Below are positions 1,828-55,904 of a DNA stretch of 64,000 nucleotides, piece after piece; position 1 is the stretch's first letter, and every line of letters starts with the position of its first letter. The notes beneath the pieces were generated by a model. The model saw only the letters and a program-made list of their open reading frames with translations, was not told the origin of the DNA and searched no databases. Both the position numbers and the translations under genes were made by a program. This DNA comes from Granulicella sp. (GTDB lineage: Bacteria; Acidobacteriota; Terriglobia; Terriglobales; Acidobacteriaceae). The DNA is taken from contig DAHWNL010000082.1 in assembly GCA_027339965.1 (NCBI GenBank), positions 1-64,000 of the forward strand, given 5' to 3'.

Positions 1828-2272
1828 CGTTTCCCCTCTTTCTGGATTTCTCAGTCTGGCTGTGTTGCTTGATCCGTTTTCAGGTTGTCTTTCTCCAACG
1901 CTGCTATCACCGGGCTAAAGCCTTTATCGACGATGGTAGACGAGCTTTTCTTGCCACGCCAAAATCTCCTCCAATCCTGCCTGTTGCCGGGTGGTCTGGA
2001 GGGAGCCTGCGGTGGCGCTTTCCTTTCGCCACAGCCGACAAGTTCCTTCACATGGTACTCGTAACGGGGGTCACGAACGAGCACGCAAGCAGAAGCCAAC
2101 AACATATCCGCTTCATCATTCTCCTTGAGAAAATTGTGTAGCGGGAGCCGGTTGTTGGGCTGAACTGCGGCGCCGGATGCTTTGGAAAAGAACTTCGCAA
2201 GCCGTCTCCCGGGAGCTTGTGGCATGCGGCAACCGTCTCAGAAGACTGTCACCCGGCAACGGCGTTAAGCAG

Positions 2273-2300
2273 AAAAAGCCCTGTCCCGAAGGACAGGGCT
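2273..2300 (-). terminator. Intrinsic terminator closing the phage late/lysis transcript
   Basis: AGCCCTGTCC-CGAA-GGACAGGGCT perfect 10-bp stem, followed by a T-run on the minus strand, downstream of the last phage gene. Confidence 0.8.
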
Positions 2301-2487
2301 CCGCCACTCACTGGCGGCTTCCACTCATCTGTTGCAGCTCGCTCGCTGGGTCAGCTTACCCGAGTCTGCCTCGTCATCTCTGGATCCATTCCACCGCTGC
2401 CGCCGCTGTCAGACTCCCTTCCCGGCGAACGCGGCGGGCCGACCCTACGGGAACAGACCGTCGGACCCGACCAGCGAAGCGCCCGCA

Positions 2488-2820
2488 TCATGCAATTCCC
2501 GAAGAGCGGACGATCTTTTGCTCCGCCTGCGCTCTCTCCAGATCTCCGGCCGCAGCCTTGGCTCCGTGGTCCTTCTGGAACAGGTTAAGCCCCGCGGAGA
2601 CGATCTTGCCAACCTCCTTGCTGAGCCCGTGGCCATCTTCGGAGTCGATTGCGGCGCGGGTTGAGATCGTCTCGTCGGGAGGACCGCCCAGCAGCGTATT
2701 CGCACACTGGTCAATCGCCACCAGCGATCGTTCCACAAAGCCTTCCTTGGCTACCTGTTGCTGTTCCACTCCAACCTGGGCAGGGGTCAGTGGAGTGATG
2801 GGATTGGACGGATTCTTCAT
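2488..2820 (-). CDS. Phage hypothetical protein (lysis-region family)
   Basis: LVAIDQCANTLLGGPPDETISTR resembles a recurrent small phage protein motif. ATG at 2820 is preceded by an AGGAGG-like RBS. Confidence 0.65.
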   Translation of the reverse strand: MKNPSNPITPLTPAQVGVEQQQVAKEGFVERSLVAIDQCANTLLGGPPDETISTRAAIDSEDGHGLSKEVGKIVSAGLNLFQKDHGAKAAAGDLERAQAEQKIVRSSGIA

Positions 2821-2827
2821 AAGCCTC

Positions 2828-3550
2828 CTATGGCACTCGGTTCTCAAACAGTTGCTGACCCCAGTAAAGTGGTTCCACCATCTCCAGGGCACCATGGATC
2901 ATCGGCCACGATCTACGCACCTTGCAGCCAAAAGTCCGGCAGGGCGACGGAAACAGAAATGCATGGAACTTGTGCTGAAAGTCGGTTGTCGTTGCGTCCA
3001 GGTTGTGGGTAACTTGCTGGGTTTCCTCCAGCGCGGCGGGAATCTCCGGACTCTCTAGCAGCGAATCAAAGTCCTGCAGAGACCGTTGCATCACCGCTTC
3101 GTCCGGTTGCAAACCCTTGGCCGATGCATCCAGATCCTGCGTAGCTGCATCGGCTGACTTCAGCACCGGCGCGATCCCCTCCGTGATGGATCGCAGCGAT
3201 GCTGCCGCGGCGTCAGAGGTCGCGCCGAGCGCATCCACCGTCTGGTTGACGTGCGGCGCAATCGTCCGCAGGCTCTCCATGGCGGCGATCACCTGCGGAG
3301 TTATCTGCTGCTCCTGAATCTGGCTTGTCGCGATCGCATCGCCGCCTTTGGTCACCGCTTTGGTAAAAGCCGCCAGCGTCCCGCAGGGGCCGGGAGCGCA
3401 GGAGCGGTTTACGGTCTCGAGGGCAACATTCGCCTGGGCCAGGGTCCGGTCCAGCGTGCGAACCAGAACCATTGCGCAGGCGGCCACCACCCCGCAGAGG
3501 GTGATGACCGCCAATGAGCCGGCAATCTGCGTGCGTTCAACGTGGGTCAT
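2828..3550 (-). CDS. Membrane-anchored coiled-coil protein, possible spanin-like lysis accessory
   Basis: N-terminal TM segment (GSLAVITLCGVVAACAMVLV), long Ala-rich helical body, two Cys pairs, located in the lysis cassette. Confidence 0.55.
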   Translation of the reverse strand: MTHVERTQIAGSLAVITLCGVVAACAMVLVRTLDRTLAQANVALETVNRSCAPGPCGTLAAFTKAVTKGGDAIATSQIQEQQITPQVIAAMESLRTIAPHVNQTVDALGATSDAAAASLRSITEGIAPVLKSADAATQDLDASAKGLQPDEAVMQRSLQDFDSLLESPEIPAALEETQQVTHNLDATTTDFQHKFHAFLFPSPCRTFGCKVRRSWPMIHGALEMVEPLYWGQQLFENRVP

Positions 3551-3559
3551 TGCGCACCG

Positions 3560-4024
3560 TCAGGCTGCGGCTCCGGCTGGGGCTCCAGCCGCGCCGGTGC
3601 TTGTCGTCGCTGGAACCGCATTGAGCAGCGCCGTAATCTCCGTGCTGATCACGTTGGTGTACTCTTCCACCTTGCTCACCAGGGAAGGATTGCTCACCCG
3701 AACCGCCGCCAGCAGGTTGGGAAGCTCCGCTTGGATGCCGCTCAATAGGCTCGGGAGGCTGGTTGCAGCGTTTACTGTCTTCACGGTCGCCAGCGCAGTA
3801 GCCAGGTCTGCTTTGATGCCGCCCAGAATAGCGTTCGCCTCCTCGCCCAGGGCTGCGCCGCCTCCAACAGTCAGAATCGTCACCACGATCGGCCCAAGGT
3901 AGGTCAACACTCCCTGTGCGATGGAAATCCAGCTCGGAGCCTCTCCGAACAACTTTTTGAAGGCTGCCTCGACCTTGGCTGCGAACGACTTCAAATCTGA
4001 GATTAGCTCGCCAAAAAAACTCAT
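3560..4024 (-). CDS. Phage amphipathic/membrane protein in the lysis cassette
   Basis: Strong RBS (GGAGGAG), amphipathic N-terminus and hydrophobic segment. Confidence 0.6.
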   Translation of the reverse strand: MSFFGELISDLKSFAAKVEAAFKKLFGEAPSWISIAQGVLTYLGPIVVTILTVGGGAALGEEANAILGGIKADLATALATVKTVNAATSLPSLLSGIQAELPNLLAAVRVSNPSLVSKVEEYTNVISTEITALLNAVPATTSTGAAGAPAGAAA

Positions 4025-4038
4025 CGTTTCTTCTCCTC

Positions 4039-4245
4039 CTACTGCATAGGGTTTGCGGTGACTTCACCGAAGTTATTTCTGCCCAGGCGCTGCCCGGTAA
4101 GGATTCCCGTACCGGTGCCCCCAAACGTCAAACCGAAACTCACCAGATCATGCCATCCAAAGCGCGAGCCCAGGCCGATCGTGGCTGCAGCGCCGAAGAT
4201 CAGCGCCAAGGCGATGATCTGTGTCTGCGTCTCCTTATCCTTCAT
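4039..4245 (-). CDS. Small two-TM protein, holin candidate
   Basis: 68 aa with two hydrophobic helices; ATGA overlap with the endolysin stop. Confidence 0.55.
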   Translation of the reverse strand: MKDKETQTQIIALALIFGAAATIGLGSRFGWHDLVSFGLTFGGTGTGILTGQRLGRNNFGEVTANPMQ

Positions 4246-4703
4246 CCCATCGCCTCCTCGGCCGTTGCCTGGCCCAGGAACATCGCGGCCTCCGCCCTGC
4301 GCCGGGCCACCAGTCCCGGCAGCGTCGCGCCGGCCGCATCATGTACCCAGAGGCCAAACTGAGCCGCCGCCCCCTGCATATCGCCGGCGTTCACCTTGCG
4401 CAACAGCTCGGAGCGCTCCAGATTTCCTGTGCCGCAGTTGAAGCAGAAGTCCACCAGGGCGTCGAACTGGTGCTGCTCCAGGGGCTGCTCAACGGCTCTG
4501 TTGACCACAGAGACTGGTTCGGCTACATCGCGCCGCAGCGCCTCTTCCGCCTGCTCTGGCGTCCACGCCAAACCGGCATGAACATCCCGCCCGGTGTGCC
4601 CGTAGCCGATCGTCCACACTCCGCCTGCGTCTCGATAAGCCTCCGTGCGCAGCCCCTCAAAGCTCTTGGTGAGCTGCAATCCCTTTTCGCTGTACCCACG
4701 CAT
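4242..4703 (-). CDS. Phage endolysin, GH24 (T4/P22-like lysozyme)
   Basis: FEGLRTEAYRDAGGVWTIGYGHT with the E-8x-D-5x-T triad, QFDALVDFCFNCG and LPGLVARRRAE. Confidence 0.95.
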   Translation of the reverse strand: MRGYSEKGLQLTKSFEGLRTEAYRDAGGVWTIGYGHTGRDVHAGLAWTPEQAEEALRRDVAEPVSVVNRAVEQPLEQHQFDALVDFCFNCGTGNLERSELLRKVNAGDMQGAAAQFGLWVHDAAGATLPGLVARRRAEAAMFLGQATAEEAMG

Positions 4704-5065
4704 CAGTGCGCCCCCTTCAAGTACTCCTGAATCACCGCCTGCAGCAGCAGTTGCACCACCAGGAAGACACCCATGGCGACGCCGCCATAGACCATCAAAC
4801 GGTCGATCTTGGTTCCATGAGCCTGGATCTGTGCGGTCACCATGCGGAAGGCTCCCTCCTTGCCAAAGAAGTTCTTCCAGTTCGTCTCCAACGTGTCGGT
4901 TCGCCGGAGCAACTCGGTCTGGATCTCCTGAAGCTTAGCGTCACGCACATCATCCACCTTCCTCCGCTCCGCATCCACCTCGTCTCGCGCGCTCAATCGC
5001 GTCTCAATCGCATCCAGCGCGACGCGCACCTCCCCTATGTTCTGCACTCGCCTGGCTACAATCAT
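4703..5065 (-). CDS. Coiled-coil protein with C-terminal TM (holin/XhlA-like)
   Basis: ATG at 5065 after a GAGGAG RBS; C-terminal hydrophobic helix; coupled to the endolysin gene. Confidence 0.55.
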   Translation of the reverse strand: MIVARRVQNIGEVRVALDAIETRLSARDEVDAERRKVDDVRDAKLQEIQTELLRRTDTLETNWKNFFGKEGAFRMVTAQIQAHGTKIDRLMVYGGVAMGVFLVVQLLLQAVIQEYLKGAH

Positions 5066-5447
5066 GGACTCCTCCTCGAAAACACACTCTTGAACAGGAC
5101 GACGCCCTCGCAACATGCGCGGATCAAACTGCCTTCCAACTTGTTCGGTTTGGATGGGAGCCGGCACTTCAACCCCGGCAGTCGATTCCGTGAATGGATC
5201 GCGCCGGAGCAGCGCGGCTTCGGGAGACTCGAGCCGCGGAGCACAGCTACAGGGAAGCCGTCTCATCTCCTCCCGCGATCCGGCTCGGCAGAACTTGTGG
5301 CTCTATGGCATCGATGCGCGGCCTTCCGCTTGGCGCGGCATCATCCACTCCCACCCCTGCCGGCCGTGACCGTCAGCGGATCTGTCAGGCCGGCTCGGCA
5401 ACCCTTCCCCACTTGACCGCCCCACCATACCTAAGCGTCGCAACGAA

Positions 5448-6203
5448 TTAATAGCTGAAAGCACCCAGAATTGCTGTATAACTTGTGCCGTTCGAACTCG
5501 TCATGGCTCCTGTTGCCGAACTCACGATAGTGGTCGATGTATTCCACTCGCAAGCGGCATACGCACTGTCTGTCAGACTGGGTTGATCAACTGCGGCCAA
5601 TGTAGATTGGCTACCGGCCATATCTCCAGCGGAAGCAACTCCTACATGACCATTTACACAGAAGATGTTAATCGTAGGAGCGGCTGTCGAAGTGAACGAC
5701 CCGGAGGTATAGGAAGAAACGTTAGAAGAATTGCTGTTTGTGGAAGAAGTATTTAGTGTGACCGTGGGAGATAGGAACTCTAAAACAATCATCGATTGAT
5801 AGCCAGAATCGCTGGATGGTGTACAGGTGAATGTGCTTGTAGTTACTGGAGTCGACGCTCCAAGAACTAGATAGCTCATCTGCGCCGCGTTGTAGTAGGA
5901 TTCCGCAAGGGCTGTCACAATACTGAAAGAAGTGCTGTTGTAGTTGGCCACAACGGGGACCGTCGCCGCACTATTTTGTCCAGCACCGCAAAATGCTACC
6001 AGCAACTCATTAGGACCTATGTTCATTGCAGGGGTTGTCACCGAGGTACTGGCAGTTGATCCCGTATTTGACACATAGGTATAGCCTAACAAGGTAGGGG
6101 ACGTTGGGGCTGTTCCCAGCGATCCTCCAGTTAGAGACGGCCCCATATCCTGTCTTCCGGCCAGTAGCAACACACCCGCTAGCAGTACGCTCTTCCCGAT
6201 CAT
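5448..6203 (-). CDS. Ser/Thr-rich beta-strand phage protein with signal-peptide-like N-terminus (fibre-associated/adhesin)
   Basis: MIGKSVLLAGVLLLAG N-terminus; low GC; immediately follows the large fibre-like gene. Confidence 0.7.
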   Translation of the reverse strand: MIGKSVLLAGVLLLAGRQDMGPSLTGGSLGTAPTSPTLLGYTYVSNTGSTASTSVTTPAMNIGPNELLVAFCGAGQNSAATVPVVANYNSTSFSIVTALAESYYNAAQMSYLVLGASTPVTTSTFTCTPSSDSGYQSMIVLEFLSPTVTLNTSSTNSNSSNVSSYTSGSFTSTAAPTINIFCVNGHVGVASAGDMAGSQSTLAAVDQPSLTDSAYAACEWNTSTTIVSSATGAMTSSNGTSYTAILGAFSY

Positions 6204-6205
6204 AG

Positions 6206-9200
6206 CTACTCTACTCCAATCGAGAAGGTGATAGCGCTGTAGGTGATGGAGTTGGCCGTCTGGTTACAGACCTCCCACTCCGCGGTATTGGCTGCGCTAG
6301 GCCAGATGTGGAACACCATCCCTCCGACCGCTCCCCAACCTGTAAGAGAAGCCGGGTCTGAAGTATATCCGGAGGATATATGACTACCTGCGCCGCTGGT
6401 ATTCACGCCTGTGATGGTGACTGAAGCCGCAGTGGAACAGCTATTTGCCGTCTGGGTTCCGGAACTGACTGAAAGCGTGGTATCGTTTGGCATCACCACC
6501 GGAGTTCCATTCACCATAGGAGTTTGAGCAAAGTTCATCTGGCCAGTGGCGTTCGATGCAGTAAATAAGCCCTCAAAGGTTGTGCCGCTACCAATACTCA
6601 TCCCAACATTAGTTCCAGTGGCATACAGATTCACTGTGTTCGTCGAGGGAGTTTGGTTGTAGCCCTGAATAGCAGACGTCCCAAGAAGAATTACTGATGG
6701 AACCGCTGTATCTGGGCTTGCGCTTCCGGGAGAACCGCCTATGAAACTAATAGAAGCAGGCGCAACGGTTCCACCCACTGAGAGATTATTACCAATGTTG
6801 AAATAATCATTGATTGGATCTACTCTGAGCCATCTAGCACTTCCAGCATAGAAGAGATAATAAGGGGGAGTGTAAGTTCCAGGACCAGGATTACCTTCGC
6901 CCTCACAAATAATGCAGCCGTTTTCTGCGGGGGCCTGATACAAGGCGAAATCTTGAGTCCATGTTCCATTAGCCACTAACATGATGTTCCCTGGATTATT
7001 TGTTCCAGTTGCTCCATTGGAAACATTTATATTACTGCTTACCCATGCTGGGCCTTGATCCTGAAGAGTTAGTTGGGACTCGTTATTATAAGGAATACTA
7101 CCTTGACCATGCGTGTCGATGATATCACTCTCGCTATATACCGCGGCTGGAGCTTCGACTACAAAGTCCCCACTATTCCAAACTACTTGATTAGGTTGTA
7201 CAATCATGTTGTTTTCGTTGGACGAAGAACTTATAAAAGCCCCAGGATAGAAAGTGTACTCCGGGTAACCCATATTGATGGAGCAAGTTCCATCTGGACC
7301 CTCGTTAGCTCCAGTCTGTGCCCACCCTAGAGATTGGTTCTGGTTATCGTAGCTGTTAACGGTTATCGTATAGCTTCCGTTGAGGTCAGTGTCCACTGTA
7401 CAGCCAGCGACGTTTATTGTTTGCCCAATTGAAAAGTCGAAGATATTCATATAAGGACCGACATGTCCAGGAGGAGCACTTACCGATACAACATTATTTG
7501 TACGAGTCAGAGATACGCTAGCATTATATTGGAGCCCCGCATAGAGAAGTGCAGGAGTTGGGCTAGTTCCTTCTCCAATGCATCCTCCCACAACGCAGTT
7601 CGCAAGAAGAATCTGAGTTGTGGATGTTGCTCCGAGTACCTGATATGCCGCTGGCCAACCACTAGACCCTGATCCCCATGAATTGCTGTTTATAACAAAT
7701 TGACCACAAGGACCGCCCTGCATGATGGGAGAGTTAGATCCGCTCCATCCATGATAGGTAGTAAAAGTAATAGACTGGACGCCGCCACTAGCTGTTCCCA
7801 CGCTGATAATAGGGACTTCCTCTTGATACCATCCGGCCATGCAGGCATCTTCTCCGGCTACAAAACTCCCAGGAGACGCTGGACTTGTTCCCAGCGTTAT
7901 CTGACAGGTGTCTGTGGCGGGGGATAGATTATCCTGTCCGCCCGTAGCTGTGCATGTCCCCACGTTGCCCCATGCGGTGCTTTCTGTCACCGTGGTATTG
8001 CCTATATTGAAGGCGATAGAATCGTTCAAAATAGTTCCAGCGTTTGAGATGAAAGTAGCCTGAGGAGGAGTTGAATTCTGCATATCCAATAAAGTTCCAC
8101 CGGTAGCCCATTCCCATCCTGCTTGTCCCAAGCATCCTTGAGTGTGGCTCTCACAGGCGAAATTGGCTATAGCTAGAGTGGTCGAACCTTTTGTGGGCGC
8201 GGCGAGTTGTCCTTGCATAACAACCGACCCCGCATTTGGATACCCGCAGTCTGAAGTCTCTGTTGTAATTGGTCCCACTACAGGAAGACCTGTAGCGGTC
8301 GAGCATAGACCTTGAGCTGTTGTAAGACCTGGTGCAGAACCAGTTGGGACATAGACTCCCAGAGATTCACCTTGAACGATATTCACTGTTCCGAAATCAG
8401 CAGATGTGAAGGTCTGTGTCCCCGTTCCCGCTGCAAGCGTGATTGGAAGAACTTGATTGATGGTCGCATTGTTTCCAGTTCCGGGAGTCCAGACCACTAT
8501 ATAAGCAGGTCCGGCAGTGGCCGGAGTTTGAGCAAATGGAAGTGAGACGCTAGCAAGAACGCCTGATCCGGTGAAGGTCGAGTTACCACTATTGGCTCCA
8601 TCGAGCAGGAAGGTAACGCCGCTTGGACCTCCACTATAGGCTTCATATAATTCACCGACCGTGGGAGTCGTTAGATTCCCCTGAAAGTATCCCACCTGCT
8701 GCGGTTTGATATTAATGCCAGCCAATCCTTCATCGGAGCCGAAGTAAGCTCCGCCATAGAAGAGCAAATATGCATACTGCCAAGCGGCATCTCCAACCTT
8801 CAAATCGGTAAAGTTGCCGCTGATTCCGTGGTCGATTCCGGGAGAATTATTGAGAAAGTCGATGTTGAGGGCGGTGTGTCCGGCCCAGGGACCGTTGTTG
8901 TTGTAATAACCGGGACCACTCCCATTGAATTGCAAGCCAAGGTTTGTTAGAGGGGTCGCTAAGGTTGTTCCACGGTAATTCACTGTAGCGCCAAAGCTAC
9001 TGTTGGTCTGCGTGACATGTTGCGAGACGGAGGAGGCACCCATGATGCAGTCGCCACTCGCGCAGCTTCCATTGAAGGTGAAGGTGTTGCCGGTCTGACT
9101 CACGCCGCTGCCGGTCAGGGTGATATTCCCATTCACCGAACTCGACGGTCCGGTGATCGAGTTCACCAACGGGCCCGCCAGGGAAGAGTTCGGAATGGCG

Positions 9201-9724
9201 CTCGCGCTCACCGCCAGCGTCGGAGTGGTCGTCGCCGAGGTGACGGTTGGCGTCAGCCAGCTTGGCCAGCTCCCCGTGTCAAAGTTCGTCAGCGTGCCGC
9301 CGCTGTTGGTAATCGTGAAGGTGCTTCCCGACTGCGAGACGGCGTTTCCGGTAAGATACACGGTTCCAGTGGTGATGCCAGAGGGCCCCTGGATCGCGCT
9401 CACGCCGCTTCCAGCCGTGGCGCAGTTGGCCGCGCTAACCGTCCAGACGCCGTCGTTCTCCGCAGGGCAGCCGGTGAGTCCCTCGGTGTCAAGACCGAAG
9501 CCGCCGTTGCTAACCGGCAGAACGCCCTTCACCTGCGGACCCAGGTTGATGGCTTGTGCCGCCGCTGACTGCGCGCATCCGTAGCCAAACAGCAGTGCCA
9601 CGCTGGCCGCCAGACTGAGCAGAACTCTGTTCAAGGGCTGCTTCGCTCTCCAGATCAGGGAAGCAAAGCAGGCGCCGCAAATCCGGCCCCGCTCCGAACG
9701 TTCTCTAAAGAAGTCCAAACGCAT
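6206..9724 (-). CDS. Large tail-fibre/adhesin-like protein
   Basis: Fibre repeat INLGPQVKGVLPVSNGG, duplicated GPS..G...LTG..VSQ.G.TFT unit, G/S/T-rich. Start is ATG 9724 (AGGAG RBS) or TTG 9634. Confidence 0.75.
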   Translation of the reverse strand: MRLDFFRERSERGRICGACFASLIWRAKQPLNRVLLSLAASVALLFGYGCAQSAAAQAINLGPQVKGVLPVSNGGFGLDTEGLTGCPAENDGVWTVSAANCATAGSGVSAIQGPSGITTGTVYLTGNAVSQSGSTFTITNSGGTLTNFDTGSWPSWLTPTVTSATTTPTLAVSASAIPNSSLAGPLVNSITGPSSSVNGNITLTGSGVSQTGNTFTFNGSCASGDCIMGASSVSQHVTQTNSSFGATVNYRGTTLATPLTNLGLQFNGSGPGYYNNNGPWAGHTALNIDFLNNSPGIDHGISGNFTDLKVGDAAWQYAYLLFYGGAYFGSDEGLAGINIKPQQVGYFQGNLTTPTVGELYEAYSGGPSGVTFLLDGANSGNSTFTGSGVLASVSLPFAQTPATAGPAYIVVWTPGTGNNATINQVLPITLAAGTGTQTFTSADFGTVNIVQGESLGVYVPTGSAPGLTTAQGLCSTATGLPVVGPITTETSDCGYPNAGSVVMQGQLAAPTKGSTTLAIANFACESHTQGCLGQAGWEWATGGTLLDMQNSTPPQATFISNAGTILNDSIAFNIGNTTVTESTAWGNVGTCTATGGQDNLSPATDTCQITLGTSPASPGSFVAGEDACMAGWYQEEVPIISVGTASGGVQSITFTTYHGWSGSNSPIMQGGPCGQFVINSNSWGSGSSGWPAAYQVLGATSTTQILLANCVVGGCIGEGTSPTPALLYAGLQYNASVSLTRTNNVVSVSAPPGHVGPYMNIFDFSIGQTINVAGCTVDTDLNGSYTITVNSYDNQNQSLGWAQTGANEGPDGTCSINMGYPEYTFYPGAFISSSSNENNMIVQPNQVVWNSGDFVVEAPAAVYSESDIIDTHGQGSIPYNNESQLTLQDQGPAWVSSNINVSNGATGTNNPGNIMLVANGTWTQDFALYQAPAENGCIICEGEGNPGPGTYTPPYYLFYAGSARWLRVDPINDYFNIGNNLSVGGTVAPASISFIGGSPGSASPDTAVPSVILLGTSAIQGYNQTPSTNTVNLYATGTNVGMSIGSGTTFEGLFTASNATGQMNFAQTPMVNGTPVVMPNDTTLSVSSGTQTANSCSTAASVTITGVNTSGAGSHISSGYTSDPASLTGWGAVGGMVFHIWPSAANTAEWEVCNQTANSITYSAITFSIGVE

Positions 9725-10220
9725 AGAGCACATCTCCTGGTTGTGGGGCCACGGCCAGCGTGATGGTGAATAGCCCGTTGATGATCGCCGTCGTATATCC
9801 CACACCCTCCACCAAAACGGCGGAGTTGTATTGGAGGATCAACAGGGTTGACGGAGCAACCGTCAATGTGAAAACCGTATTCGTTCCATTGATGGTCCCT
9901 GCCGGCGACTGCGCGAACGGCGTCACCCCGGTTCCAGCGCCTCCGGACAAGCTCTGGTCCGGGTAGACCTGCTGCACGATCTCCGGCGCCTGCACCACCA
10001 TCGTATACAGCTGCGTGTTGTCCAGATAACAGCCGATCTGCCCCAGTCCATCGGTCTCCTGCGGATTGGGTGCAGGTGTCCCGCTGGTATCGCTGTACAC
10101 GCTGGCCAGCGGAGTCAGCGTCGCCACATTGGCCGGCTGGGTGAGGAAGTACACCTGGGCTCCGGCGATCGCCTGCCCCTGCGCGGTTTGCACCACGCGG
10201 TCGATTCGTGTGATGGCCAT
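9705..10220 (-). CDS. Phage tail/fibre-attachment protein
   Basis: N-terminal GQAIAGAQVY...NPQETDGLG (tailspike head-binding/CarboxypepD_reg-like); C-terminal GTINGTNTVFTL...AP.PGD.L phage repeat. Confidence 0.7.
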   Translation of the reverse strand: MAITRIDRVVQTAQGQAIAGAQVYFLTQPANVATLTPLASVYSDTSGTPAPNPQETDGLGQIGCYLDNTQLYTMVVQAPEIVQQVYPDQSLSGGAGTGVTPFAQSPAGTINGTNTVFTLTVAPSTLLILQYNSAVLVEGVGYTTAIINGLFTITLAVAPQPGDVLYAFGLL

Positions 10221-10223
10221 CGA

Positions 10224-10913
10224 TCAGGCTCCCGTGATCTTGCAGGTAAACTCGCCCGCTCCGGTTACGCCGCTTGGCAGGGCGCGATAGAACAACCACT
10301 TTTCGGTCACCGTCAGCCCATTGGCGGTCACGGCTCCGTTGGCCACTGTGGCAATGGTTCCAAGGGTCACAAACTGCGCTGGATCAAGGAACATGGAACC
10401 TTGCAGGCTGATGGTGGCCGTAGTGGGCAAGGTGGTGAACTCGCAGACCGCGGTCAGCGTGCGGTCCAGGTCGCCCCCAAAGCTGCTGTTAGCCATGGCC
10501 ACCGCGACGCTGGGGCCCGTTGTGCTGCTCAGCGCCTCAGGAATCTCCGGCTGGGGAACGATCGCAGCGCCCGCATCCGGTGTCGTCGCCAGGTCCGCCG
10601 CCGTCAACGCAAAGGAGACGCTGCCCACGCCGTTGGAGGCAATATCGACCGCCGTCAGAGCCTGGGCGGTCACGTTGAAGGCTCCGCCGTTGGTCACCGT
10701 GCCCTGCACGCTGATCAGCGATCCCGCCGCCGGTATCGAGCCTCCGTGAATCGTCACCCCGAGCGCGGCCACATCCGAGGAGACAGCCACGGAGGTTACA
10801 TACATCTGGGTGGGCGAACGGTCCTGCTCCCAGCTTCCGAACAGGTAAGCGGGAACTCCAGCGTAAAGATAGGGAACGGCAGGGCCAAACGGCGATGCGT
10901 TGAATGCGGGCAT
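10224..10913 (-). CDS. Phage virion structural protein (beta-rich)
   Basis: AAGGAG RBS, clean 229-aa ORF in the tail module. Confidence 0.65.
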   Translation of the reverse strand: MPAFNASPFGPAVPYLYAGVPAYLFGSWEQDRSPTQMYVTSVAVSSDVAALGVTIHGGSIPAAGSLISVQGTVTNGGAFNVTAQALTAVDIASNGVGSVSFALTAADLATTPDAGAAIVPQPEIPEALSSTTGPSVAVAMANSSFGGDLDRTLTAVCEFTTLPTTATISLQGSMFLDPAQFVTLGTIATVANGAVTANGLTVTEKWLFYRALPSGVTGAGEFTCKITGA

Positions 10914-11043
10914 ATCTGCTCCTTAAAATCGAAGTGCCCCGCGCCGGGGCGGTTGTCTTCGGCTCCTACTCAGGGGTGCTTGCCGCCCCGGAACGCTACC
11001 AGGTCGGGGGAGTGCTCTCCATGTTCAGGTAGAGATCGATTCT

Positions 11044-11640
11044 TCAACCCTTTCCCGGCCGGAATCCCAGGCTCCCCAGTCCCTGCATCAGGCCGGTGGC
11101 CTGTTGCAACCATCCAGAGTTGTTGGCGTTCGTCTCCGCATTGATGTCCCCGGCCTGCTGTCCGGCGGCTTGCAGCATGCCGCTGGTGTTGGTCCCATAC
11201 AGACCCTGCAGTTGGTTGGAGGCCGTCTGTTGCTGTTGCTGTTGCAGGTTGGCGTTGGCAGCGCCGATCTGCTCACTGGCATCCGCTGCGGCCTTGGCGC
11301 GTTGCCGCGCGGCGTCATCCAGCACGGCTGAAAGACTCCCACTGTTGTGCGTCTGGGCCGCGTTTTGCATTGCCCTGCCGGCGATCGCCGAGGTGGCTCC
11401 GCCGGCGCCGGCATCCGCTGCGGAAAGCATGCTGCTCAACTGCTGCTGGCTGTACCCCTGCGGGTGCTGCAGCTCGCCGGTCAGAAACGGCGTCAGCGTG
11501 CTGGAAATTCCACTCGCCTGCGCCCCTAACCCTGAACTCGTATTGGCCGCCGTCGTTGCGGCGTTTGCTGCCTGGCCTGTTGCTGATCTCATCGTGTCCT
11601 CCGCGTCCATAGATGCCAGCCCGGACGGTCCTTCTCCCAA
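11044..11640 (-). CDS. Small DNA-ejection/pilot protein (P22 gp7-like)
   Basis: A/Q/S/G-rich helical protein after the GNAT-like gene, the position of P22 gp7. Confidence 0.6.
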   Translation of the reverse strand: MGEGPSGLASMDAEDTMRSATGQAANAATTAANTSSGLGAQASGISSTLTPFLTGELQHPQGYSQQQLSSMLSAADAGAGGATSAIAGRAMQNAAQTHNSGSLSAVLDDAARQRAKAAADASEQIGAANANLQQQQQQTASNQLQGLYGTNTSGMLQAAGQQAGDINAETNANNSGWLQQATGLMQGLGSLGFRPGKG

Positions 11641-11978
11641 CCCAACTGCGCTAACCGCTTGTCAAAGCCAATCTCCGCAACGGCTGCATGAATCTCATCC
11701 AGCCCGCGCGCCCTGGCCTCCTCCAGCACGGCAGTCTGCAACTGCCGCATCGCGTCCATCTTGTTCCGCGGCCGCCCCGCCGGATCCAGAAACAGCATCG
11801 TCTCGGCGCATAACTTCAGCACTCCAGCGGCAACGATCCTTCCTTCATGCACCTTCACCTTCTTCACAAAGAAAAAGGCGTCGCTCAAATCGGGGAACGC
11901 ATAGTCGATCCCCTGCCGGGCATGCATCTTGCGCAAGCCTTCGACGTCCTCTGGTAAAAAATCTCGAATCAATGTCAC
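11589..11978 (-). CDS. GNAT-like virion assembly protein (P22 gp14/T7 gp13 position)
   Basis: GTG start overlapping the upstream stop; IRDFLPED start and EARARGLDEIHA...RLAQLGW end are GNAT-like. Confidence 0.55.
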   Translation of the reverse strand: MTLIRDFLPEDVEGLRKMHARQGIDYAFPDLSDAFFFVKKVKVHEGRIVAAGVLKLCAETMLFLDPAGRPRNKMDAMRQLQTAVLEEARARGLDEIHAAVAEIGFDKRLAQLGWEKDRPGWHLWTRRTR

Positions 11979-12565
11979 ACCGTCCTTTTGGCGGCCGGCG
12001 GTGAACCCCGCAGCAGCGTCTTGCCCAATCCTGACCCGCCTTGCTGACCGTTGCCGCTGGCCGTGCCGCTGCCGGTGGAAGGCAACAGAGTCAACTGCGT
12101 GCTCCCGGCCATCTTTACCGCCGTGGGAGAATCCCCGCCGTAGACCACCGGAGCGCTGGGCGGGCTGCCCGGCATCTGCGAGTAGCTGCGCACATACCAA
12201 CTCTGCGCGTTGCCGCTGGAGTCCAGGGTAGGAAGTGGAAACGGATGGCTGGTGCGGCTGGCTCCGTGGTCGATCACGATCGGCCTTGTAAAGCTCGGGC
12301 TATTCGCCACTTCAGTGAAGTATCGTATCCCTCGCTGCAGCGGCGCATTGTCAGTAATCGAAACGTGCATCATCTCACCGGCTACGGCCACATCCACCCT
12401 TTGGGGTGAATTCGGCGCGTTCACCTGCCCGACCGCTGCAACCCCCGCCGCCTGCGCCACCGAATTCACCGCAACCTGAAACTTGGTCCGCAGCAGAACT
12501 CCCAGCTTTGGCCACACCCTTTCCACCTCAGACAGAAGATCGCCCCCATCCAGATTGGCCATCAC
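11975..12565 (-). CDS. Phage tail protein, hypothetical
   Basis: Translationally coupled ORF directly after the nozzle gene. Confidence 0.6.
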   Translation of the reverse strand: MMANLDGGDLLSEVERVWPKLGVLLRTKFQVAVNSVAQAAGVAAVGQVNAPNSPQRVDVAVAGEMMHVSITDNAPLQRGIRYFTEVANSPSFTRPIVIDHGASRTSHPFPLPTLDSSGNAQSWYVRSYSQMPGSPPSAPVVYGGDSPTAVKMAGSTQLTLLPSTGSGTASGNGQQGGSGLGKTLLRGSPPAAKRTV

Positions 12566-15500
12566 CTCACCCCCGTCAGCACGTTATGGGGATGTCGCTT
12601 GCCCGTCAGCACCACATTGCTGATCTCCATCTTTCCGGTGGTGGAGAACTCCAGAAACGTCCGCGTCGCCGCAAAGTTCAATGGAGCTTCATGAATCTGC
12701 ACGCAAGGCTCAGAGAGGGGAAAGCCTCCCGGCAGCGTCCAGGGGAAGTACCCTGTGCTGCTGTCGGTCGGCCCTAGCAGCGTATTGGGTAAAAGGCGCA
12801 GGTTCAGCGTGCCGACTCCCGCCACCTGGTGCGTCACGTAGCTCCATAGTTTGCGGAACAGACCCAGAAGCGGCATCTGCGCAGCTTTGCTTGAGTTCAC
12901 CCATCCGTAGGTTGTATAAAGCGACTGGATCGGCGCTCCGTCATCGGTGGGAACCTCGCCTGGCTGCAGCTTGGTATTCAGGCGGTAGATCTTCGAGTTC
13001 CCGAGTCCATTGCAAAACCGCATCTCGCTGTCGAGCAGGGTGATCTCGCCGGTGGAGGCCAGGCTGACGGCTCCATTGCGACTCACCGCATTGGCATAGG
13101 GGCTCTGAATCTGCCAGATGGACCACTTGCGACGCATGTCGGTATCCATCAGCGTCCCGAACATCGTTGTGTGTACGCCGATCATGCTCTGCAGCTCGGA
13201 GCCCGTATCGCATCCCTGGTAGTTACACATCAGAATCACGTTGGGCGCAGTGGGCGCGGAATTAGGCGGCGCGTTGGGGAGCCAGAAGTTCGGCGTAGGC
13301 AACGGCACGCCCACGTACAGTTTGCGGTGGGTTACGTCCACCTTGACCCAGATCGAGCTGGCGGCGCTCCAGTTGAGGGCGTCCCAAATGGGAAAGATCT
13401 CCTCCATGATTCTGCCCGGCTGGCCGCCTTCGAACAGGTACAGCCCGTTGCGGCAGGCCTCCACGATCCACTGCGGGCCGAAGTCGTAGGCGTTGATTGC
13501 GCAGGCTCCGGCGCGCTGGGCCACCTCCGGTTCGTTCCAGTCGCCGGGCTCCTGATTGCCGCTGGACTGCAGGGAGTACATGCTGGCCTGCTTGAGGGCG
13601 TAGAAAGTGTCGTACATGATGACGGCGCCGTTGACCGGCTGCTGGTTTTCGCTGGTAAAGCCGACCACCCCGGTTACGCCGTCCACGCTCTCGGGATTAT
13701 TGGCATAACTGAAGTAGACGCTGGTGGAATCCACCGGCGCGTTGGTGGGAAAGATCTCGATGCGATCGATCTCGACGTCGGCTCCGGGGGCCAGACTGGC
13801 GGCGTAGAGTTGTAGCGTCAGGCCGGTGGGAACGGTGGTGAAGGCCGAGGTGAGCAGCGTGCCGGTGAGAGTCTGCATCTGGGTGCTCAGTTGCGCCAGC
13901 GGGATGGTGAAGGAACCAAGGATGGCGCCGTTGCTCTCCAGCGCGACCACCAGGCTTCCGCCGGAGTTGCCCGCAGGGGCGCGGGCGGTGACGCGCGCGC
14001 TGTAGAGCGTGTTGGGATCCAGGATGGGTTGCAGGTACGCGTCCTGGTAGGCCGACTGCTGAATCTTGCCGGCCTGGGTCAGGGTTCCAGCGCTGGAGTT
14101 CCTGATGTAGTAACTGTTGCCGAAGACGGGCGAGGCCAACAGGCTGCCGTAGGCGTCCGCGGCGGACCATCCCAAGGGCATCAACTGGCCACCCGGCAGG
14201 TAGCCTCCGTCGAAGCTGAGGTTGATGAAGTTCTGAATCTTGTTCTGACACAGGCCGTAGGCATTCCGGCCCGCGTAGCGAACGATCCAGCCGGGGTTGC
14301 CGATCTCGATCAGGTTGAAGAGGTTGTTGGCGTAGATATCGATTGCCTCAGCCTGTACCAGCGCACTGTCAGGGAAGGAGAAGCTGGCAGTGGTGGAGAC
14401 GTTGTCCAGGATGAACAGGCTGCTGGCGGTGTAAGTCGTTCCCTGCACGATGTACTGCACCGCAGTCGGAAGGGTGAAGAAGTTGGCTCCAGGCACGCCG
14501 TTGGATCCGGACTCCGTAAGCGCGATGCCGCGCGCCACCACGTTGGGCGGACCAATGGGAATCTGCGCGGCCAGAATTGAAGTGGTGTTGTCGGGGATAT
14601 CGAAGGTGACCGGAGGGCTGGGAGCGGTGTAGTAGCCGTTGCGGGTGATGAAGAAGACCACGCCCTGCTTGGTTCCGGGGCTGATGTACTGGCCTACCCC
14701 GGTGACGGTGATCTGCCCGCCCGTTGCATCGCCATAGATGGGCGAGGTGGAGCCGCCCAGGGTGAGCAGGCCGGGATCGAAGCAGAACTCAGTTCCGGCA
14801 GTTGTGGCCTGGCCCTGCTCCTGCTGAGCGGGATAGTTGGTGACGGCGGAGAAGCCCTGGATGGTGAAGGTTCCGATGTTGCTTCCGCTGACCGCGCTGA
14901 TGATCATATTGACGCCGTTGAGCGAACCGTTGGCGTTCAGCGTGCCGGTAATGGTGACCATCTGCCCTGCGGCGGGGTTGGCTCCGGAGATGACGGCGTA
15001 GCTATAGGTGGCTACTCCGGCGCTGAGGCTGGTCTGGGTGATGGTTATCGCGCCGGAGTTCAGTGTCTGCGCGATGGGCCAGGTGGCGTTCCAGGCGGCC
15101 ACGGAGCTGCCGGTGACCACGGCGCTGGAGCCCGTGGAGAGTTGCGGGACCGGCGACTGGGTGGTCATGGTGGCCAGGGTGATCTGGTAGTTGGCCGTAT
15201 AGCCTGCATTCCCGCTGCCGGCGTAAAAGAGATACTGGTTGGTGGGGACAACATAGGTGTAGTAGTAAAACTGCCGCGGCTGGCCTGGGGGCGAGGCCAG
15301 TCCCACGCTGGTCACCTGGGCGGTGATGGGCCCCTGCGGCTCCGCTACGCCGGTAAAGGAGGTGTACAGGTAGACGGCGCTGCCGCTGTTGAAGGCGTTC
15401 ACTAGCGTAGCATCCTCTCCGGTCTGGGTGGAGTCGGCGTAGTAGATTGTGACGACGTTGCCGGGCGAGGTGGATCCGGGTCCGGTGGACTGCAGGAAGT

Positions 15501-54634: not shown

Positions 54635-55843
54635 TCACTTTTGGGGTGCGCCGTCAGAGGAATCGGGGCCAACCGACTGAACGCGAATCTGCCGGAAGAC
54701 CTTGCTGAACTGATCCTGCAGCGCCTTGTAGTGCAAAAAGGCGGCCATCTCCTGCTTGGCGGCGGCGGGCTGGCCGGCCTGGCGGTAGAGCATGCTCAAC
54801 CGGTAATGCGCCACGATGTTCGTAGGGTCCTCTTTGACTGCTTCTTGTAGCAGAGCCATCGCCTGGTGTGGATGCTTCATATAGGTCAGCATCTTCGCCA
54901 TGTCGGTTTGCGCCTCGCCATCGGAGGGCTGGAGCGCCAGCGCACGCTTGAAGTCCTGCTCCGCCGCCTTCCAGTTCTCCTTGCTTGCTTCCACCTCTCC
55001 CAGGCCTCGCCAGGAGCCTTCATCATACTGGTTGACGGCTAGCGCTGCCTTGTATTCCGGGCCGGCTTGCGCCTGAAGCTTTGGATTGGAAGAGAGATGC
55101 AGCAGCTCGGCCAGCTCATAGTGCGCGCCGGGCAACTTGGGGTTCAGCCGCAGCGCCTTCTGGTATTCAGCAATGGCCGCCGGATTATCTCCCTGGCGCA
55201 CCAACTCGTGGGCCATCATGATCTGCATCTCCGCGGAGTCAGGGGCCACCACAACCATACTGAGCAGCGTCTGGTCCATGAGGCGCGAGTACACCTGATA
55301 GACCACCGACAGGATATAGGGGTCGTCGGGCGCCGCGCTTTGCAACTCCGCGGCCGCAGAGGCGGCTTGATCCAGCTTTCCCTCGGCAGTGTCATCTTCG
55401 ATGAGCGCCAATCCAGCTTCGATCTGTATCTTTTTATCCTGCAAATGCCGGAAGGCGGTCTTCAGGTCGGTGCGTGCTCCGTCGAGATTGCCCATGCGCT
55501 CTTCGGCGATACCCAGCAAAGCCTGAATCTTGTAGAGGTCGGGTTGCAATTGCAGAGCGGACCGGAGCCGCGCGGCGGCTTCAGGGTACTGCCCTTGAAA
55601 GTAGAGCAGCACACCCAGATTTCCGAGCGCATCCACATCGTTCGGCTCCAGCGCGACGATCTTGCGGAGCACGGGAATGGCGCGATCAGGCTGCTGTTGC
55701 TGTAGATCCTGCTGAAGCTCGCGATTCAGATCTGCCAGTTGCGCGGCCGCGTCCGTGGCGCCGGTTTGCGCGAAGAGCGGCTGCGGCAGCAAGAGCGGTA
55801 TTGCGGCGATGAAGCTGCTGAAGAACGGTGTTTTGATACGCAT
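54635..55843 (-). CDS. Exported TPR-repeat protein
   Basis: Signal peptide; several A..Y..AL.L.P TPR units. Confidence 0.9.
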   Translation of the reverse strand: MRIKTPFFSSFIAAIPLLLPQPLFAQTGATDAAAQLADLNRELQQDLQQQQPDRAIPVLRKIVALEPNDVDALGNLGVLLYFQGQYPEAAARLRSALQLQPDLYKIQALLGIAEERMGNLDGARTDLKTAFRHLQDKKIQIEAGLALIEDDTAEGKLDQAASAAAELQSAAPDDPYILSVVYQVYSRLMDQTLLSMVVVAPDSAEMQIMMAHELVRQGDNPAAIAEYQKALRLNPKLPGAHYELAELLHLSSNPKLQAQAGPEYKAALAVNQYDEGSWRGLGEVEASKENWKAAEQDFKRALALQPSDGEAQTDMAKMLTYMKHPHQAMALLQEAVKEDPTNIVAHYRLSMLYRQAGQPAAAKQEMAAFLHYKALQDQFSKVFRQIRVQSVGPDSSDGAPQK

Positions 55844-55904
55844 CGAGCCTTCCTGTCGCCGCCCATCTTGTCTCCAGTTCATCAGGCGATGGGCCAGCGT
55901 CCAT

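Follow-up and report, generated by a model that had tools for sequence, protein, structure and literature searches.

The stretch of DNA considered here, referred to as the window, comprises the 64,000 nucleotides (nt) at positions 1 to 64,000 of contig DAHWNL010000082.1 from a Granulicella sp. assembly (GCA_027339965.1). It is a chromosome piece of the Acidobacteriaceae type, with an outer-membrane protein combining CarboxypepD_reg and OMP_b-brl_4, a GH116 protein, a sulfatase with a Tat signal, and biotin genes, and all but one (a 1.5-kb contig) of the 13 related genome loci belong to assemblies of Acidobacteriaceae or Granulicella. A prophage occupies the window from about 2.8 to at least 32 kb; it lies wholly on the minus strand and encodes the terminase subunits TerS (PF03592, 1.7e-28; phrog_51, 2.7e-34) and TerL (PF03237, 7.1e-5; phrog_979, 1.8e-19). 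The terminase genes are followed by a run of open reading frames (ORFs) of structural size, for which no Pfam or PHROG family was matched. The gene order then is a 1313-amino-acid (aa) protein, proteins of 196, 198, 229 and 171 aa, a fibre of 1172 aa, a 251-aa protein and the lysis cassette, which places the fibre and 251-aa genes between tail-side genes and the lysis cassette, i.e. in the tail-fibre position. These two genes are the subject of this work. Sec export of both products as disulphide-bonded proteins is supported by their sequences and fits every computational test that was run. The features on which the argument builds are the following:

6206..9724, minus strand: fibre gene, 1172 aa from ATG 9724 (stop codon 6206-6208; ORF 6206-9805), no Pfam, PHROG or NCBIfam family
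9635..9724, minus strand: variable, positively charged N-terminal extension of 30 residues, translated only from ATG 9724
9551..9634, minus strand: signal-peptide core NRVLLSLAASVALLFGYGCAQSAAAQA by reading of the N-terminus, predicted cleavage at AAA|QA or AQA|I (the bar marks the site)
6209..9550, minus strand: mature fibre with 20 Cys, conserved in the N-terminal ~180 aa and the last ~120 aa; centre variable and poor in guanine and cytosine (GC)
5448..6203, minus strand: 251-aa companion with a short hydrophobic leader, MIGKSVLLAGVLLLAG|RQD, and 4 Cys; no Pfam or PDB sequence match
9705..10220, minus strand: signal-less 171-aa protein with two beta domains, by its model fold and gene pairing a candidate for a tail-bound anchor and docking platform
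10224..10913, minus strand: 229-aa protein, gene directly preceding the anchor gene, no family match

The strings quoted in a first, sequence-only reading of this region are all present where that reading had placed them: the fibre ORF contains ...LNRVLLSLAASVALLFGYGCAQSAAAQA immediately ahead of INLGPQVKGVLPVSNGG and also CASGDC, CESHTQGC, CVVGGC and CIIC, and the next gene starts with MIGKSVLLAGVLLLAG at 6203, three bases past the fibre stop. The fibre leader ends with ...GYGCAQSAAAQA, after which the protein continues with INLGPQVKG. As to the start of translation, ATG 9724 is the only start codon common to five related prophages, and in all five the frame runs from this codon to the hydrophobic core without a stop or an indel, with residues that vary. 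This ATG overlaps by 20 nt with the stop of the upstream 171-aa gene, and an AGGAGA motif 8 nt upstream of it falls within the coding sequence of that gene. TTG 9634 was considered as well; in three of the five related prophages GTA or CTG stands in its place, so that this start is not conserved. The leader has 28 residues from 9634, or the same residues preceded by the basic 30-residue extension, and a signal peptide is present from both starts. Both starts lie upstream of the hydrophobic segment, and 117 of the 128 informative relatives have a leader.

Counted from 9634, the fibre leader consists of NR as the n-region, VLLSLAASVALLFGYG as the h-region and CAQSAAAQA as the c-region, and the leader of the 251-aa protein of K, then SVLLAGVLLLAG, then RQD. 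By heuristic and by reading, both proteins have the layout of Sec/signal peptidase I substrates, with n-, h- and c-regions in order and small residues at -3 and -1. The signal-peptide calls were made with a crude heuristic rule, by reading of the N-termini, and by likeness to the leader of a host outer-membrane protein encoded at 50877, which starts with MKRQILLETAFLFAACASMASAQATN, ends its leader in ...FAACASMASAQATN and has the same AxA|Q style as the fibre leader. The rule was positive for four of 26 window proteins, namely the fibre, the 251-aa protein and two small membrane proteins of the lysis cassette, and it made visible false calls in two viral contigs. The signal-peptide-like N-termini that had been noticed on the fibre and on the next gene are in this way confirmed, both being of the AxA|Q type that the host protein uses.

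Other export routes were considered for these leaders. The Cys in the fibre leader does not make it a lipoprotein leader for signal peptidase II, as the lipobox L-[AS]-[GA]-C is absent and the window sequence has FGYGC at this point; a lipobox-like string occurs in 13 of 117 leader-bearing relatives, which retain the AxA|Q site further on, and the host outer-membrane protein leader likewise carries a Cys ahead of ASAQ. No RR motif adjoins the h-region when the Tat motif S/T-R-R-x-F-L-K is sought, and the Pfam family TAT_signal matches the sulfatase of the window and neither the fibre nor the 251-aa protein.

A side observation concerns the residue after the cleavage site. In the signal-peptide-like ORFs of the source genome, Gln is the top +1 residue after [AVS]xA, with 86 of 527 (16.3%) against a background of 4.3%; this count used crude site picking, and examples in the window are the proteins at 50877 and 54635-55882. 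The preference resembles the ‘Q-rule’ of Bacteroidetes, and the paper on that rule does not mention Acidobacteria (PMC5837995).

The presence of a leader is a property of the whole fibre family. A profile search over 1.84 billion representatives gave 910 matches at E<=1e-3 (the family thus counts 910 representatives at 50% identity), of which 177 were at <=1e-30. The best 150 of these matches comprise 22 N-terminal fragments, 117 proteins with a leader (112 called by the rule and 5 more by eye) and 11 without, which leaves 128 informative N-termini. A site of the type small residue|Q is present in 110 of the 117. In a first search, the 11 complete homologues (P0001-P0006 and P0008-P0012; P0007 is partial), at 35-99% identity, all had signal-peptide-like N-termini, and their leaders are unrelated in sequence, so that the feature is kept and the sequence is not. 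Leaders are also found on the complete ORFs of the genome loci and on six of six complete homologues from viral contigs. Because the leader is conserved across distant relatives without conservation of its sequence, it is not an accident of one gene. The companion behaves in the same way: its leader is kept in four of four locus homologues and in all seven sequences of alignment A6 as a hydrophobic stretch of 10-13 residues followed by G-(R/K)-Q. The 242-aa partner from Granulicella sp. L46 is one of these sequences.

Beyond this, the fibre matches no fibre or spike family of Pfam, PHROG or NCBIfam, and as no Pfam family is found at E<=0.01, it has no S74 chaperone-protease domain. The fibre profile and the 251-aa profile each gave 0 matches against PDB sequences, an Atlas look-up of the fibre returned a best score of 0.78, which was not used, and weak collagen-repeat PHROG matches occur in a single fibre relative. 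A tblastn search for homologues in cultured phages, with the fibre and with two relatives as queries against 50,697 phage records, gave nothing relevant, and a metagenome scan with the fibre N-terminus alone gave no relative.

The second line of evidence for export is the pattern of cysteines. The 20 Cys residues of the mature fibre form 10 sequence-adjacent pairs that are gained or lost together among 20 homologues: pairing of adjacent residues leaves 6 discordant cells, pairing shifted by one leaves 33, and random pairing leaves 49.5 on average, with none of 10000 random pairings reaching 6. Numbered from the 9634 start, the pairs are 56-71, 191-196, 444-463, 494-501, 561-577, 598-643, 680-685, 745-784, 907-910 and 1066-1123. 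With crude cleavage sites, the mature Cys count is even in all 20 aligned homologues, and it is even in 105 of the 117 leader-bearing relatives. To judge from the sequences, the pairs have the look of obligatory disulphides, which by itself is not proof of export. Taken together, the n/h/c layout, the conservation among homologues, the co-varying Cys pairs and the even parity lend support to the idea of the sequence-only reading that these are Sec-exported, disulphide-bonded proteins.

The hydrophobic N-terminus could in principle serve another purpose, be it as an uncleaved element for assembly or membrane contact, or it could be left untranslated; the fibre would then fold in the cytoplasm, and its cysteines would be oxidized after release. 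Several observations do weigh against the interpretation that we prefer, and those that bear on export belong here. The leader call comes from a heuristic and from reading, and the rule also flags N-terminal membrane anchors. Eight of the 11 relatives without leader are apparently complete (the other three are ambiguous), and since nine of these 11 also have an even Cys count, disulphides could form without export. A disulphide network has moreover been reported for the tail of phage Milano, according to the accessible part of that literature. We nevertheless consider a non-export role highly improbable, since the n/h/c layout and the AxA|Q site are kept without sequence conservation in 117 relatives and the leaders match those of the host itself. 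Many relatives offer no possible start but one that lies ahead of the hydrophobic stretch, right next to the upstream gene. The h-regions, finally, have about 12-16 residues and are therefore too short for a membrane anchor.

If the two proteins are exported, the question is what they do outside the cytoplasm, and here their divergence is informative. Compared with three syntenic prophages, the fibre is 63-79% identical, the 251-aa protein 49-57% and the flanking genes 73-96%; the fibre is the most divergent large gene of the prophage and the 251-aa gene its most variable gene, a distribution that is usual for host-range genes. Along the fibre, identity is 72-98% in the first 180 aa, 45-70% in the centre and high again in the last 60-120 aa. 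The GC content is 0.495 at 6001-8000, which is the variable centre of the fibre, against 0.58-0.66 around it, and this suggests a module brought in by recombination from phages of lower GC.

The genomic contexts of relatives add to this picture. In an SU10-like viral contig (L018, with portal PF23899, capsid PF25209 and adaptor PF24175), a homologue with a signal peptide lies between the capsid and adaptor genes, and no other fibre-like gene is visible in its structural block. In SU10 itself, the long-fibre genes adjoin the adaptor, which carries the fibre dock, as stated in the accessible text (PMC9509320). Leader-bearing ORFs follow each other directly in several contigs (six in L015, four in L019, two in L020), and in L040 the relative is the first of three such ORFs ahead of a lysozyme that is 56% identical to the one of the window. 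Among the 35 longest relatives, the tailspike-type enzyme domains are GDSL/SGNH esterase in 6/35 and K1-lyase_C in 1/35, with no others. Matches between the window phage and the SU10-like contig or phage Tunturi 1 are limited to fibre and endolysin.

Some further observations were made on these contexts. An SGNH/GDSL or K1-lyase_C domain forms the end of the leader-bearing relatives P0098, P0104, P0134, P0148, P0152, P0157 and P0159, which are fibres with, judged by their domains, a probable polysaccharide-modifying activity. Genes for chaperonins occur in phages that have runs of leader-bearing fibres: L015 codes for a Cpn60-like protein (1882-3627, minus strand; PF00118, 5.4e-62), and the Cellulophaga phages phi46:3 and phi18:3 have an annotated cpn10 (L051:11805-12407; L052:1718-1972). 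Another prophage type with a leader-bearing fibre has a block with a HipA_2-like kinase and DUF3037 between terminase-like and portal genes (L008:15744-20428; same block in L006, L010 and L022-L035).

A possible attachment partner for exported fibres is encoded directly upstream. The 171-aa protein has no leader and is 88-96% identical among related prophages; its family has 89 members of 94-300 aa. The AlphaFold model (predicted local distance difference test score, pLDDT, 93.3) consists of two beta domains joined at residues 94-96. For residues 6-90, the top three VIA-align results are phage tail complexes, and in the model the N-domain superposes on the tail-bound N-domains of the Pan3, Pam1 and Sf6 spikes and the C-domain on a TSP4 N-terminal domain; the TSP4 N-terminal domains are a hub for other tailspikes. 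The 171-aa model thus has the fold of the N-terminal tail-binding domain of podophage tail spikes (the P22/Sf6 ‘head-binding’ type). The family profile has a sole match among PDB sequences, the ‘Tail spike protein’ 9vyg (E 0.005), PHROG families for tail fibre or virion structure match 6, 4 and 4 of 45 family members, and PF09008 (Head_binding) occurs in 29-38% of the members of Atlas neighbours, which can be taken as a lead only. It speaks against the assignment that the window's own copy matches no Pfam or PHROG family, and that PF09008 itself matches 0 of 45 family members at E<=0.1. The idea that the 171-aa protein is related to the N-domain that follows the leader in other fibres (TTTVQDTVY type) was also considered and dropped, as BLAST, hhalign (probability 0.2) and the A7 hidden Markov model gave nothing.

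The pairing of this candidate anchor with leader-bearing ORFs recurs beyond the window. The block of a 229-like gene, a 171-like gene and a signal-peptide ORF exists here and in related viral contigs, and within the genus the 171-aa gene is confined to the three genomes with a fibre of the window type, each time directly upstream of it. Via the anchor family, 18 viral-contig loci were fetched, nine of which could be assessed, as they have a stand-alone full-length relative and >=450 nt of downstream DNA. In eight of these nine contigs, an ORF of 569-1440 aa starts within ~45 nt of the stop of the anchor relative, and all eight ORFs have a leader ending in |Q and an even number of mature Cys (10, 30, 22, 8, 8, 16, 12 and 12). 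These downstream fibres are otherwise dissimilar, with 16-28% identity over the first 120 residues; what they have in common is the Gln at +1 and another Gln 1-7 residues further on, usually in Q-(I/V/L)-(N/R/K). There are also loci in which the anchor N-domain is fused to a leader-less protein of 885 aa or 464 aa (L063, L067), and others in which leader, anchor domain and long fibre are united in one ORF (L069, L070). The sequence-only reading had suggested two fates for the exported fibres, a docking onto particles at lysis, perhaps via 9705-10220, or a use as cell-surface adhesins; the first has gained support from the signal-less protein, its tail-spike-type fold and the pairing in 8/9 contigs, and the second survives with a single Granulicella locus (L005).

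We therefore consider it fairly probable that the fibre and its companion serve for receptor binding in a temperate phage, probably one with a short tail, and that they belong to a split system in which an anchor is mounted on the tail in the cytoplasm and exported fibres dock onto it after holin action. What was computed are the signal-peptide features and their conservation, the Cys pattern, the prophage context, the fold of the anchor and its pairing with signal-peptide ORFs; from these we infer export, cleavage, disulphide formation, the site of the anchor on the tail, docking and its timing. In a first step, the 171-aa anchor would be mounted on the tail in the cytoplasm by its tail-spike-type N-domain, as its fold suggests, and would present its docking domain. 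In a second step, fibre and 251-aa protein would pass through Sec and lose their leaders to signal peptidase I at AxA|Q, and their folding in the periplasm would involve ten disulphides in the fibre and probably two in the companion; leaders and Cys pattern are the reason to expect this export, trimming and oxidation. In a third step, when the holin opens the inner membrane, the fibres would meet the particles in the confined space of the envelope or just after the burst, and docking onto the pre-mounted anchor would be the final assembly step. Such a late docking is physically plausible, because the addition of fibres or spikes is the last assembly step in P22 and T4 and works in vitro for both.

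In this mechanism, lysis would be the trigger that renders inert particles infectious by means of Sec-exported, oxidized and trimmed fibres, and the same route would be shared by phages of Acidobacteriaceae in general and be found again in other phyla. We estimate the odds of this reading as a whole to be about even. Textbook assembly of tailed phages is wholly cytoplasmic. If the proposal is true, tailed phages would have a compartmentalized final assembly step that is gated by lysis, and disulphide-stabilized receptor binders would help to explain persistence in acid soils. It would also mean that a large group of soil phages has host-range genes that escape annotation pipelines in which proteins with signal peptides are sorted out as non-structural. 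The absence of a signal peptide has indeed once been used to argue that a fibre-like protein belongs to a phage, as the accessible text indicates (PMC6199706).

The most serious alternative accepts export and denies that the fibres become part of the virion. Their place of action would then be the envelope of an infected cell or a lysogen, where the fibres might alter or cleave the host's own surface polysaccharide from the periplasmic side, mask a receptor (for superinfection exclusion or for protection of progeny from debris) or aid release, and the receptor binder of the particle would be another protein, such as the 1313-aa protein. Sec delivers to the periplasm only, and the way and time at which particles and fibres would meet are postulated in our proposal. 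The polysaccharide-acting domains of the relatives (SGNH, K1-lyase_C) and the DUF2961 / CHB_HEX_C in a neighbouring signal-peptide ORF would suit enzymes of the envelope. In the 89-kb viral contig L020, two signal-peptide fibres lie among nucleotide-metabolism genes, outside the tail-fibre block and away from the ordinary tail-fibre gene, and in L053 an anchor gene of 69% identity is not followed by a signal-peptide ORF. In a survey of Porphyromonas gingivalis phages, the authors interpret leader-bearing genes as modifiers of the host surface, according to the accessible text (PMC10367356). We nevertheless regard a purely envelope-bound function as rather unlikely. The genes occupy the tail-fibre position, and their starts are tightly coupled to the stop of a tail-spike-type anchor gene in eight of nine contigs. 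Signal-peptide ORFs take up a large share of small phage genomes, with six in a row in L015 and five in Tunturi 1, and the SU10-like contig would be left without a visible fibre-like gene in its structural block. Finally, analogous proteins of phage phi18:3 carry ‘structural protein’ labels based on tandem mass spectrometry (MS/MS).

It has also been asked whether the fibre is phage-derived and domesticated, i.e. a secreted or surface adhesin in a prophage that is a remnant. The precedent is the 21 MAT proteins of Bdellovibrio, which have signal peptides according to the accessible text (PMC10769870). In Granulicella sp. L46 (L005:10070-13761), a leader-bearing 988-aa fibre homologue and a leader-bearing 242-aa gene of the 251-like type adjoin a tyrosine recombinase/integrase (PF00589, 1.1e-18), and no phage structural gene was detected within 10 kb; the two genes may be a remnant, may belong to a satellite-type element or may have been domesticated. 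In the window, the prophage that holds the genes looks complete and shows synteny in four genomes. The fibre family is present in 18 of 24 genomes of the genus and in none of 16 genomes of the neighbouring family, and it is found on viral contigs; an S74 domain is missing from the fibre, and the divergence is typical of host-range modules of phages. A domesticated adhesin is thus very unlikely here, and docking of exported fibres onto the virion continues to be the interpretation that we favour.

The holin action that this interpretation calls for could be provided by the lysis cassette, which lies downstream of the fibre genes and has the following parts:

2828..5266, minus strand: lysis cassette as a whole
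4703-5266, minus strand: 187-aa ORF with a C-terminal membrane segment, role suggested by this hydrophobic segment
4242-4703, minus strand: lysozyme (PF00959, 2.8e-45; phrog_7, 2.2e-57)
4039-4245, minus strand: 68-aa holin-like protein, role suggested by hydrophobic segments
3560-4024, minus strand: 154-aa membrane protein, role suggested by hydrophobic segments
2828-3550, minus strand: 240-aa protein with an N-terminal membrane segment, role suggested by this hydrophobic segment

The 187-aa ORF probably has its real start at an internal Met near residue 68, and its homologues in L001 and L004 have 120-137 aa and align to residues 68-187 only. The 154-aa membrane protein is 72-87% identical to ORFs of otherwise unrelated phage contexts: in viral contig L020 the homologue lies immediately upstream of a signal-peptide fibre, and in the prophage type of L006-L012 / L022-L036 a few kb separate it from the fibre downstream. 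The 154-aa protein has no family match and a patchy distribution (10 of 24 genomes of the genus, 0 of 16 of the neighbouring family). In the tail module, a 129-aa ORF (11589-11978, minus strand) without Pfam or NCBIfam match occupies the gap between the 196-aa and 198-aa genes, and a comparable place in the tail module of Tunturi 1 holds a gene annotated as acetyltransferase. A scan of positions 2500-13000 for promoters and terminators gave counts not above those of shuffled sequence.

How does this system compare with known ones? In classical podophage spikes, anchor and receptor-binding part form one signal-less polypeptide that is assembled in the cytoplasm. In this group (the Sf6/P22 tailspike, Pan3, Pam1, CBA120 TSP4 and the SU10 long tail fibre), the domain folds of the Pan3, Pam1 and Sf6 spikes and of TSP4 resemble those of the 171-aa protein, and in SU10 the fibre genes lie next to the adaptor, comparable to the position of the window-family gene. 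The difference is that the anchor of the window is a separate protein and that the distal parts have leaders and paired Cys. The literature searches brought up no account of tailed phages whose tail fibres carry Sec leaders.

Outside virions, the tail-fibre-like MAT proteins of the predator Bdellovibrio bacteriovorus are comparable, as each of the 21 has a signal peptide and then a conserved beta-rich domain, and they are of the trimer type, according to the accessible text (PMC10769870). Unlike the prophage genes of the window, they are chromosomal genes of a predator outside any phage, and many have S74; the likeness is one of description only. The survey of P. gingivalis phages lists five leader-bearing genes of unknown function that obey the Q-rule (PMC10367356, PMC5837995). 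As far as the accessible texts go, their leaders follow the habit of the host signal peptidase I with Gln at +1, like those of the window, and they are interpreted as modifiers of the host surface and not as fibres.

Closer parallels come from cultured podophages. The Cellulophaga phages phi18:3 and phi46:3 (Pachyviridae) have consecutive large proteins with Sec-type leaders ending in small residue|Q. In phi18:3 (KC821620), gp085, gp086 and gp087 start with MKNKITIIMILMSISFGYSQ..., MKKTIYILSILLLTISGVSAQ... and MKHTFSIVLFFILSIGLNAQ..., and their GenBank notes read ‘structural protein; annotation based on experimental MS/MS proteomics analysis’; phi46:3 (KC821622) has the same run of leader-bearing proteins in gp079-gp083, and RefSeq names relatives pectate lyase or tail fibre. 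No text discussing the leaders of the phi18:3 proteins was found. The parallel has its limits, as the phi18:3 proteins have no sequence relation to the window family, belong to a phage of a Bacteroidota host and contain few Cys (0, 1 and 3), unlike the window fibre, and detection in a virion preparation by mass spectrometry could be due to co-purification.

Tunturi 1 (PP887698), a plaque-forming podophage of Tunturiibacter (described so in the accessible text of PMC11924767), infects a host of the Acidobacteriaceae and has leaders on gp12, gp13, gp14 (‘tail spike protein’), gp16 and gp17 (‘virion structural protein’). As in the window, the leader-bearing block lies between a tail protein (gp11) and the endolysin and lysis genes, the leaders are of the AxA|Q type, and there are many Cys in even numbers (in total 20 in gp12, 10 in gp13, 21 in gp14 with one of them inside the leader, and 32 in gp17). 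Its endolysin is 42% identical to that of the window. Tunturi 1 differs in that its proteins are not matched by the A2 family profile and in that it is lytic, whereas the window element is a prophage. In the main text of the Tunturi paper (PMC11924767), a term search found none of ‘signal peptide’, ‘tail fib’ and ‘mass spectrometry’. The parts of the system and the export route are already known, and what is new is their combination and the assembly route that it implies. As cultured phages with the same trait exist, namely Tunturi 1-3 and Cellulophaga phi18:3, the system is testable now.

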